Shown: positions 50,601-53,600 of the stretch, one piece after another
How the letters are laid out: every line of letters starts with the position of its first letter
How positions within the stretch are numbered: position 1 is the stretch's first letter
Origin: Owenia fusiformis
Taxonomy: Eukaryota
Length of the DNA: 64,000 bases
NCBI GenBank assembly: GCA_903813345.2
Contig: CAIIXF020000001.1
Location: 21,948,001-22,012,000, forward strand
Direction of reading: 5' to 3'
Translations under genes and position numbers: made by a program
Notes under the pieces: generated by a model
Seen by the model: only the letters and a program-made list of their open reading frames with translations
Told to the model about the DNA's origin: nothing
Database searches by the model: none

Positions 50601-53600
50601 TGTCATCACAATGTTAATCCTTCATATTCTAGAACATCTTTTGTTTAATGTGTTAATCCTTTTTTCTAGAATGATCTAGAGTATATGACATCATCATTTT
50701 ATGACCTAAGTTTCTTAAAAAATACATGACATCATGCCCTAAAATAGAATTTGACATCATTTTTACCATATAAAAATCTCCAAAAAGTGTGTGGACCATT
50801 TATGAACATGGTAGTAAACAACTGGTGATTTAGACATATCTGTATGCATGTTTAAGGTAAGTCCTAAATATTCTGTACATGATATTCAATAACACAACAT
50901 CTAAATGCAGTAGGATCATATATGTTCCAATTTCTTTGATTAGTTGTTATATATGAATTGTATTTTATGTAAATAATTTCGTAGAAATTGAGCGAATTGT
51001 ATTTTATGTAAATAATTTCAATGAAATTGAGGGTAAATAATTTAGTAGAAATTGAGAGAATTTAGTATTGTGACATGGTCGAATACTTTAATTATCATGT
51101 ACAAATATTAACTGATGTTCACAAGTATTGTTCATCTGGAAGGTTCCAGAAGTTTGACAGAAAAATCTATTGAATGTATGTTAAGAATATAAATAATCTT
51201 TCAACTTTCTAATCTGGAATGGTCAATAACAACAAGAACTACATTAATTCACGACATCAGTTTCTAAGAATATCACGACATCAGATGTTGATAAGAAGAT
51301 GATATTGATGCCACTTGACAATATATATTGAGTGAAATATTCAAATCTTTATCATTTCAATCCTTATACTTGATATATACACATCAACTAAAAACCATGA
51401 AACTAGTACCATATGTAGACAACCCAGAACACTGGTTGAAACTTATTAGAGCTGGTAGACAGAATAGATTGAAAGTATCTCAAACAGGAAGAGGGTGGAT
51501 AGGCATAGATGACATTAAAGAAGATACTAAACCGGTATTAATCATATCACCCATGACTGCAGTTGTCGACAGAGCAAAGGCACAATTGAAACGTCAACAA
51601 GAAGATATGAAACATGAAGAGTATAGACCATCTAAAGAGAAACAACAAAACTCTGTAAATATAAAGAAGAAACATCCATTTAAACAGAAAAAACAAAACA
51701 CTTCGAATACAAGAAAGAAACGGACATTCTTATACAAACCACCTGGTATCCCAGCAAGGATGGACGATTAAAGTTATTTGTATATAATACTGAACGATAT
51801 GAATAAAAATAAATAACTAAAGTTTCAAATGTTGTTGCTATTTACAGTCATTTACAAATGGTTTGAATATGTATGAGCATTAGTTAGCATTACCTCATTA
51901 GCATCTGTTAGCATTATCATTAGCATATGTTAGCATCTGTTAGCATTATCATTAGTATCTGTTAGCATTACCATTAGCATATGTTAGCATCTGTTAGCAT
52001 TACCATTAGCATATGTTAGCATCTGTTAGCATTACATCATTAGCATATGTTAGCATTATTTAGCATTAGTTTTACAAATGTTCACTGATGTTCACAAATG
52101 TTCAAAAATGTTCACTAGTATTGTTCACAAATATTCACTAGTATTGTTCACAAATGTTCACTAATGTTCACAAATGTTCAAAAATGTTCACTAGTATTGT
52201 TCACAAATGTTCACTGATGTTCACAAATGTTCACTAGTATTGTTCACAAATGTTCACTGATGTTCACAAATGTTCACAAATGTTCACTAGTATTGTTCAC
52301 AAATGTTCACTGATGTTCACAAATGTTCACCAGTATTGTTCACAAATGTTCACTGATGTTCACAAATGTTCACTAGTATTGTTCACAAATGTTCACTGAT
52401 GTTCACAAATGTTCACTAGTATTGTTCACAAATGTTCACTGATGTTCACAAATGTTACCAGTATTGTTCACAAATGTTCACTGATGTTCACAAATGTTCA
52501 CTAGTATTGTTCACAAATGTTCACTGATGTTCACAAATGTTCACTAGTATTGTTCACAAATGTTCACTGATGTTCACAAATGTTCACAAATGTTCACTAG
52601 TATTGTTCACAAATGTTCACTGATGTTCACAAATGTTCACCAGTATTGTTCACAAATGTTCACTGATGTTCACAAATGTTCACTAGTATTGTTCACAAAT
52701 GTTCACTGATGTTCACAAATGTTCACTAGTATTGTTCACTGATGTTCACAAATGTTCACTAGTATTGTTCACAAATGTTCACTAGTATTGTTCACTGATG
52801 TTCACTAGTATTGTTCACAAATGTTCACTGATGTTCACAAATGTTCACAGGAAATGAGGAGGAGGAGGAGGAGGGGATGAGGAGGAGGGAATGAGGAGGA
52901 TGGAATGAGGAGGAGGATTAGGAGGGAATGAGGAGGAGGAGGAGGGGGATTTGTGAACATCAGTGAACATTTGTGAACATCAGTGAACATTTGTGAACAT
53001 CAGTGAACATTTGTGAACATTAGTGAACAATACTAGTGAACATTTGTGAACAATACTAGTGAACATTTGTGAACAATACTAGTGAACATCAGTGAACAAT
53101 ACTAGTGAACATTTGTGAACAATACTAGTGAACATTTGTGAACATCAGTGAACAATACTAGTGAACATTTGTGAACATCAGTGAACATTTGTGAACAATA
53201 CTAGTGAACATTTGTGAACATCAGTGAACATTTGTGAACAATACTGGTGAACATTTGTGAACATCAGTGAACATTTGTGAACAATACTAGTGAACATTTG
53301 TGAACATTTGTGAACATCAGTGAACATTTGTGAACAATACTAGTGAACATCAGTGAACATTTGTGAACAATACTAGTGAACATTTGTGAACATCAGTGAA
53401 CATTTGTGAACAATACTGGTAACATTTGTGAACATCAGTGAACATTTGTGAACAATACTAGTGAACATTTGTGAACATCAGTGAACATTTGTGAACAATA
53501 CTAGTGAACATTTGTGAACATCAGTGAACATTTGTGAACAATACTGGTGAACATTTGTGAACATCAGTGAACATTTGTGAACAATACTAGTGAACATTTG

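Follow-up and report, generated by a model that had tools for sequence, protein, structure and literature searches.

A gene for a small basic protein in the arms of a palindromic mobile element of Owenia fusiformis with Maverick-like ends

The palindromic insertion and its gene

The window analysed here is a stretch of 64,000 nucleotides (nt) from the annelid Owenia fusiformis (GenBank assembly GCA_903813345.2, contig CAIIXF020000001.1, positions 21,948,001 to 22,012,000 of the forward strand). Its subject is a palindromic mobile element of 5,914 bp lying at 49982-55895 (window coordinates), together with the gene for a 124-amino-acid (aa) basic protein carried in each of its arms. The element reads 5'-AGTAGATAGAAAACTGAGGG ... 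CCCTCAGTTTTCTATCTACT-3' and is bounded by two copies of the 6-bp target-site duplication ATTGAC, one at 49976-49981, where the flank ...CATTGAC is directly followed by AGTAGATAG, and the other at 55896-55901. The inverted identity starts precisely at AGTAGATAG at both edges, and outside them the flanks agree over 6 bases and no longer over 7. The terminal 20-mer, for which chance would predict 0.01 matches, is confined within the window to the element's two ends, and it returned no match in the viral contigs and metagenome contigs searched. The palindrome is a transposon insertion. Contigs of sequencing run X2 cover it with 513 short pieces, at summed word depths ranging from hundreds to thousands, compared with 45 in the junction bin (depth summed over contigs being a rough measure only), and one of these contigs connects the element end at 49981 with another flank, meaning that the element is multi-copy and present at further sites.

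In the same run, the host flank left of the element (49773-49918) had the top summed contig depth (about 2,300-2,800), and RNA reads falling on it have loose ends; the insertion site seems to lie in or beside another repeat family. Three RNA reads of run X21 follow the arm inward of 50010 but have another outer sequence attached to it, which starts with a close but imperfect copy of the terminus (AGTAGATATAAAACTG...). They suggest that a sister family exists whose end is related and which is likewise transcribed.

The left arm (49982-52825, plus strand, 2,844 nt) is mirrored by the right arm (53052-55895, minus strand). Over its first 2,553 nt it matches the reverse-complemented right arm at 100% identity; all 100 mismatches between the two fall in the inner satellite, in which the repeat register shifts. 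The arm terminus is G+C-rich and is followed, toward the centre, by short tandem duplications. The TGACATCA motif occurs five times in one orientation, at 50163, 50206, 50686, 50727 and 50752 on the plus strand (50163-50759, mirrored at 55118-55714), and three of these copies stand immediately 5' of a TATAAA at 50769. The two arms hold 10 of the 13 TGACATCA matches in the window, for 7.0 expected across the whole window, and these motifs may resemble CRE/ATF sites. A second TATAAA (51188-51193, plus strand) lies about 200 nt 5' of the ATG of the gene, is followed by short upstream ATG frames and, judging from its position, is a candidate promoter.

The inner part of the element is occupied by repeats. 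A TTAGCAT-type minisatellite with periods of 22/32/54 (51867-52071, mirrored at 53809-54010) precedes a TGTTCACAAA-type satellite with periods of 10/43/86, which extends over 777 nt on the left (52074-52850) and 855 nt on the right (52949-53803). Between the two satellite blocks there is a non-palindromic, GAG/GGA-rich centre of 98 nt (52851-52948). A lone unit of the inner satellite, of TGTTCAC type, is found at 51100-51134 (plus strand), about 265 nt 5' of the ATG, and shares 85-92% identity with the satellite units (blastn of the arm against the window). The TGTTCAC-type motif is consequently present on either side of the gene, and any relation between this motif and the protein is a matter of speculation.

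The gene itself occupies 51397-51771 on the plus strand as an intact open reading frame (ORF) starting with ATG, and its mirror copy at 54106-54480 on the minus strand has an identical translation. Two tandem AATAAA sequences, candidate polyadenylation signals, are situated 31 nt past the stop codon (51802-51807 and 51808-51813, mirrored at 54064-54075). The protein contains a YVDNPEHW motif (residues 6-13), a QTGRG motif (residues 29-33), a helix-motif segment (residues 50-66) and a tail rich in Lys and Arg, whose coding part holds a 48-nt internal duplication. Apart from the internal duplication, these features had been described in an initial annotation made from the sequence alone, and they are all present. 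That annotation had also named the 124-aa protein as the product of the element's only gene, which the ORF listing bears out: it is the single ORF of at least 60 aa per arm, the runners-up being ATG ORFs of 41-51 aa. The start context, previously considered a good Kozak sequence, is aaaACCATGa and agrees in having an A at -3; the base at +4 is an A rather than a G. Two identical convergent copies are indeed present, as had been stated, but they count as a single observation because both sit in palindrome arms that are 100% identical. The doubling of the gene is a by-product of the palindrome and does not represent two separately retained genes.

Perfect palindromes can result from chimeric long reads, and the identity between the arms is suspiciously high, so that the palindrome could be viewed as a long-read assembly error and its ORF as a chance, non-coding frame. 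Such an artefact is hardly credible. The outer junctions lead into distinct host sequences with a matching 6-bp duplication, the stretch is present in independent sequencing runs from 6 studies, the protein has homologues at 33-48% identity, and the frame remains open for 150 codons from stop to stop in DNA of about 31% G+C, a considerable length for DNA so rich in stops. Since true protein homologues exist, the ORF is more than a chance frame and is a genuine protein-coding gene.

A family of small, strongly basic proteins

A phmmer search against 1.84 billion representative sequences returned 5 proteins at E <= 0.001 (98, 41, 45, 39 and 32% identity), and a profile search recovered 7 relatives among 1,323 candidates. 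Together with cluster members, these searches gave ten relatives overall and none beyond the following two sources: seven come from Owenia fusiformis, where they are spread over one 25-kb contig and several of chromosome size, and three from ENA contigs of 1-2 kb. Two relatives are 97-98% identical to the window protein; the other eight share 35-41% identity with it in the alignment and 33-48% in local tblastn matches. When the ten relatives were used as tblastn queries, they matched solely the 124-aa frame, in both arms, the distant ones with E values of 1e-10 to 1e-17. Judged by these searches, the family is an orphan one, so far from Owenia fusiformis and three ENA contigs, and several of its members in the Owenia genome are annotated merely as “unnamed protein product” genes.

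In the alignment of the 11 sequences, 9 columns are invariant and 14 near-invariant, almost exclusively within residues 1-67. Family members range from about 77 to 144 aa. All 11 are strongly basic, with isoelectric points (pI) of 9.9-11.0. The window protein has a pI of 10.2 and contains 29 Lys or Arg among its 124 residues, including 15 among the last 49. The tail varies in length and sequence while keeping its basic character across the family, and this Lys/Arg-rich portion is the fast-evolving part of these proteins. The AlphaFold2 model calculated from the same alignment has helices at residues 10-21 and 52-75, the remainder being of low confidence. The predicted family architecture is that of an N-terminal domain of about 75 residues, composed of two helices and a loop carrying a G-x-G sequence, followed by a disordered basic tail.

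The initial annotation had proposed a likeness to small proteins of Polintons and adintoviruses. No relative that could sustain it was obtained with phmmer, profile, Pfam, PDB, BFVD, IMG/VR or JGI searches. For the window protein, MBR1 was the sole Pfam match; it covers the low-complexity tail and, at 17.4 bits, falls short of the cut-off of 25. The family MDM31_MDM32, which is the best Pfam match in 5 of the 11 members (best E 0.00078), was rejected and read as compositional. The PDB profile search gave nothing significant, the best match (E 5.3) being an unrelated Brix protein, and the ESM Atlas, queried with the full-length protein and with its residues 1-78, gave best scores of 0.88 and 0.90 to clusters without names, which offered no lead. 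In the BFVD fold search none of the 134 listed matches reached E <= 0.001, a weak test given an input model with a mean predicted local distance difference test (pLDDT) score of 56. The family alignment produced 345 pattern matches in IMG/VR viral contigs and 442 in JGI metagenomes, none of which was confirmed. Screening 7,998 candidates of 253-2,000 aa for longer or fused forms brought up none, a result of little weight. Motifs of the QxGxG and SPxxxxVxxAKxxLKR types, on which the proposed likeness was founded, are not named in the available portion of the adintovirus paper. The likeness thus appears to be without support, within the limit set by the fast evolution of Polinton and adintovirus proteins.

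The suggestion that the G-x-G is a protease site of the adenain type fared no better. The sequence is near-invariant (10 of the 11 members), and the consensus given for the adenovirus protease in the accessible text is (M/I/L)XGX-G or (M/I/L)XGG-X (PMC7998265). None of the 11 members agrees with it, because the P4 residue is Q or H. Polinton proteases may have another specificity, and the cleavage-site comparison is therefore not final.

These results bear on the proposal of a core or DNA-condensing protein from the virion of a Polinton/adintovirus-like virus, cut by a protease of the adenain type at the G-x-G and kept by the element as helpful or as interfering with its helper. Its small size, its pI and its near-invariant G-x-G speak for this proposal, as does its location in an element with ends like those reported for Mavericks in the part of the source at hand (PMC8097293). 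According to the portion of the literature available on the adenovirus core proteins VII, V and Mu, these are also small or medium-sized, strongly basic and of nuclear type, and are products of a virus related to the Polinton lineage (PMC7998265). The Owenia protein, however, is Lys-rich rather than Arg-rich as they are, and has no sequence or fold match to them in PDB or BFVD, the fold test being weak. Adenovirus core protein genes belong to the late block, in contrast to the terminal position found in Owenia. Besides the unmatched protease consensus and the negative database searches, what counts against a core protein is this position, near the terminus and after TATA boxes and clustered TGACATCA motifs, a layout that presumably recalls adenovirus E1A/E4, and hence an early or accessory unit more than a late structural gene. 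On the whole, we consider a virion core protein quite improbable.

Possible kinship with Mavericks and a proposed role for the gene

Polinton/Maverick elements have as a stated hallmark a target duplication of 6 bp, according to the part of a recent survey that was available (PMC10045372). For vertebrate Mavericks, the available text of a second study describes 6-bp duplications, end motifs (AGT)2//(ACT)2 or (AG)3//(CT)3, terminal repeats of 46-1,447 bp and accessory ORFs in regions beside the core gene modules (PMC8097293). At the level of the element, the Polinton framing of the initial annotation fits these descriptions. The Owenia element has terminal inverted repeats and a perfect 6-bp duplication, ATTGAC, and its termini AGTAGA...TCTACT share 5 of 6 bases with (AGT)2, a consensus that, in the text at hand, is that of vertebrates and may not be the annelid one. 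It also has a small, inward-pointing gene near the terminus, where Mavericks, as far as described there, bear variable accessory ORFs. A further parallel is offered by butterfly polintons, which in the accessible portion of a preprint have gene-bearing terminal repeats of about 2 kb and thus two gene copies per insertion (bioRxiv 10.1101/2025.02.07.637071). There, however, the duplicated genes are core ones (hexon, adenain) and the interior is complete, as far as that portion goes, while in Owenia the gene is an orphan and the interior is absent.

The differences from Mavericks are considerable. The element measures 5.9 kb, compared with 12.7-24.6 kb in the Mavericks covered by the text available, and its arms of 2.8 kb make up almost all of it, compared with terminal repeats of 46-1,447 bp. 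It also has inner satellite arrays. No pPolB, rve integrase, ATPase, protease or capsid gene is included in its ORF listing. At best, it is a non-autonomous Maverick derivative.

An element unrelated to Mavericks, that is, a cut-and-paste transposon of Foldback/Galileo-like or IS3EU/GingerRoot-like type with the ORF as cargo or regulator, has to be considered in view of this absence of Maverick genes. Long inverted arms containing tandem repeats resemble Foldback/Galileo, going by the portion of the source available (PMC3573991). The Owenia element shares with these the scant unique interior, and differs from them in its AG..CT ends, in the conserved protein gene within its arms and in having tandem repeats at the inner ends of the arms instead of throughout. 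Foldback and Galileo duplications are 7-9 bp long, and the Owenia duplication is exactly 6 bp. IS3EU/GingerRoot elements likewise make 6-bp duplications, but their ends, in the part of the survey at hand, are TA..TA and rarely TG..CA (PMC10045372), with which the AG..CT termini do not agree. Taken together, these features make an origin outside the Mavericks distinctly unlikely. With moderate confidence, we take the element to be non-autonomous and moved by an integrase of Maverick type.

The reading preferred here is that the protein is an accessory nuclear nucleic-acid binder encoded by the terminal region of a Maverick-like element, a statement that, taken as a whole, we hold to be on balance probable. 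In each arm of the young, non-autonomous element of 5.9 kb, the gene faces inward and is separated from the nearer end by about 1.4 kb. The element consists of two inverted copies of a terminal segment of about 2.8 kb, arranged around a short purine-rich centre bordered by satellite arrays. Its insertion would be the work of an integrase specific for AGTAG ends and leaving 6-bp duplications, supplied in trans by a helper of Maverick/Polinton type; no such helper was seen. The protein would most likely derive from an accessory gene of the terminal region of the parent element. Its basic tail could provide for nuclear entry, and it may bind nucleic acid or chromatin, possibly the TGTTCAC repeats of the element itself. 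As to the palindrome, it may have originated by strand switching in protein-primed replication, or else by loss of the interior from an element with very long terminal repeats.

Several points weigh against this reading. Neither the element nor the window has a Maverick protein gene (ORF listing, and Pfam on 7 window ORFs), and two features of the DNA are all that connects the element with Mavericks. At 2.8 kb, the arms have about double the length of the largest terminal repeat given for vertebrate Mavericks in the text available (1,447 bp). The structural model on which the predicted domain depends is poor (mean pLDDT 56, predicted template modelling score 0.22). The close subfamily shows no sign of purifying selection at present, on numbers that are small, and the intactness of the relatives is partly a matter of ascertainment, since annotation as a protein requires an intact ORF. 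Finally, the RNA reads are sparse, of both orientations and mostly 95-99% alike, and they extend beyond the AATAAA pair to 51880.

As regards selection, among the near-identical copies 6 of the 375 nt of the ORF vary, as do 13 of the 1,415 nt preceding it; the ORF is no less variable than non-coding DNA, in counts too small for a test. Among the close copies five codon changes were derived by hand, two being synonymous (G20, I50) and three replacements (L48Q, Q68H and H73Y), which correspond to states present in the aligned family members P0001 and P0006. Over a longer span, the retention of the N-terminal domain by paralogues of 33-48% identity argues that the family has been under constraint somewhere, subject to the same ascertainment of intact ORFs.

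The transcript evidence comes from three raw-read RNA runs under the same species label, with 11-12.7 million records each. These contained 29, 35 and 18 reads on a 2.2-kb stretch, with reads on the ORF in every run. Being merely 95-99% alike, most of them come from other copies. Some of the reads run past the AATAAA pair, and both orientations are represented. Accordingly, the family is weakly transcribed, a statement that applies to the family and not to the window locus, to a strand or to a 3' end.

The low RNA signal and the variation of the ORF among close copies, which is not below that of the upstream DNA, would also be expected if the gene were useless to the element, as a captured member of a host gene family or of a family from another element, within a palindrome too young for the ORF to have decayed. 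The identity of the arms over 2,553 nt and the perfect target duplication agree with such youth. Against this, the paralogues have kept not only the N-terminal domain but also the overall length, and the X2 depth within the element peaks in the domain-coding part (51452-51597), at 1,975-2,670 compared with about 270-700 in neighbouring bins, by the same rough measure. This peak suggests that the coding part is common to more repeat copies than its flanks. A gene without function for the element is, in our judgement, unlikely.

A further reading is that the palindrome is the integrated “snap-back” defective genome of an annelid Maverick/adintovirus-like virus, with a new family of small basic proteins encoded at its ends; we regard it as a long shot. 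In this scheme the end of the genome would have been copied back on itself during protein-primed replication and the product then spread through the germline by a helper integrase. The protein might act on the repeat arrays of the element or against the helper, in the manner of a defective-interfering particle equipped with its own effector, and read-through over the convergent copies could generate a perfect hairpin RNA.

Mavericks/Polintons are regarded both as transposons and as viruses, and outside vertebrates, nematodes and insects hardly any work exists on their small accessory genes and defective derivatives. No palindromic Maverick derivative is described in the available portions of the literature on non-autonomous or palindromic Mavericks/Polintons, and the words Maverick and Polinton are absent from the main text of the Owenia genome and methylome papers, the supplements of which may list classes of transposable elements. 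If the link to Mavericks is true, the Owenia element would be a palindromic derivative made entirely of arms that still bears a conserved gene, and it would give a handle on terminal-region function and on the mobilisation of defective copies in trans, as well as a new protein family in which DNA binding could be examined. If it is false, the gene would be another lineage-specific orphan ORF in a repeat, of local value for the annotation of Owenia.

Other features of the window

The DNA of the window is animal, and the Pfam analysis of 7 of its ORFs identified a UDP-glycosyltransferase, a VWA domain and a fragment of a Na/Pi cotransporter. The UDP-glycosyltransferase is encoded by an intron-free frame of 533 codons (14075-15676, plus strand), with a full-length match to UDP-glucuronosyl/glucosyl transferases (E 4e-88). 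On the minus strand, an uninterrupted frame of 2,766 codons (22130-30430) contains 47 matches to Sushi/SCR repeats and one to the HRM hormone-receptor domain; as one exon, it is unusually long for an animal gene. A second Sushi-bearing frame is found at 18990-19625, also on the minus strand.

Both the UDP-glycosyltransferase and the giant Sushi genes are flanked by direct repeats (5047-6239 and 30867-32218) lying about 25.8 kb apart, whose 300-nt pieces are 96% identical and each of which contains tandem units of about 162 bp. This pair may correspond to a segmental duplication or to the ends of a large element. A small foldback at 12493-13258, with inverted arms of 333 nt that are 96% complementary and separated by 100 nt, is probably an insertion resembling miniature inverted-repeat transposable elements; compared as a possible relative of the element having AGTAG ends, it proved to have unrelated ends. 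Lastly, the region 39282-40533 consists of a tandem array of a 68-bp unit in at least 15 copies, the central ones being 96-99% identical.

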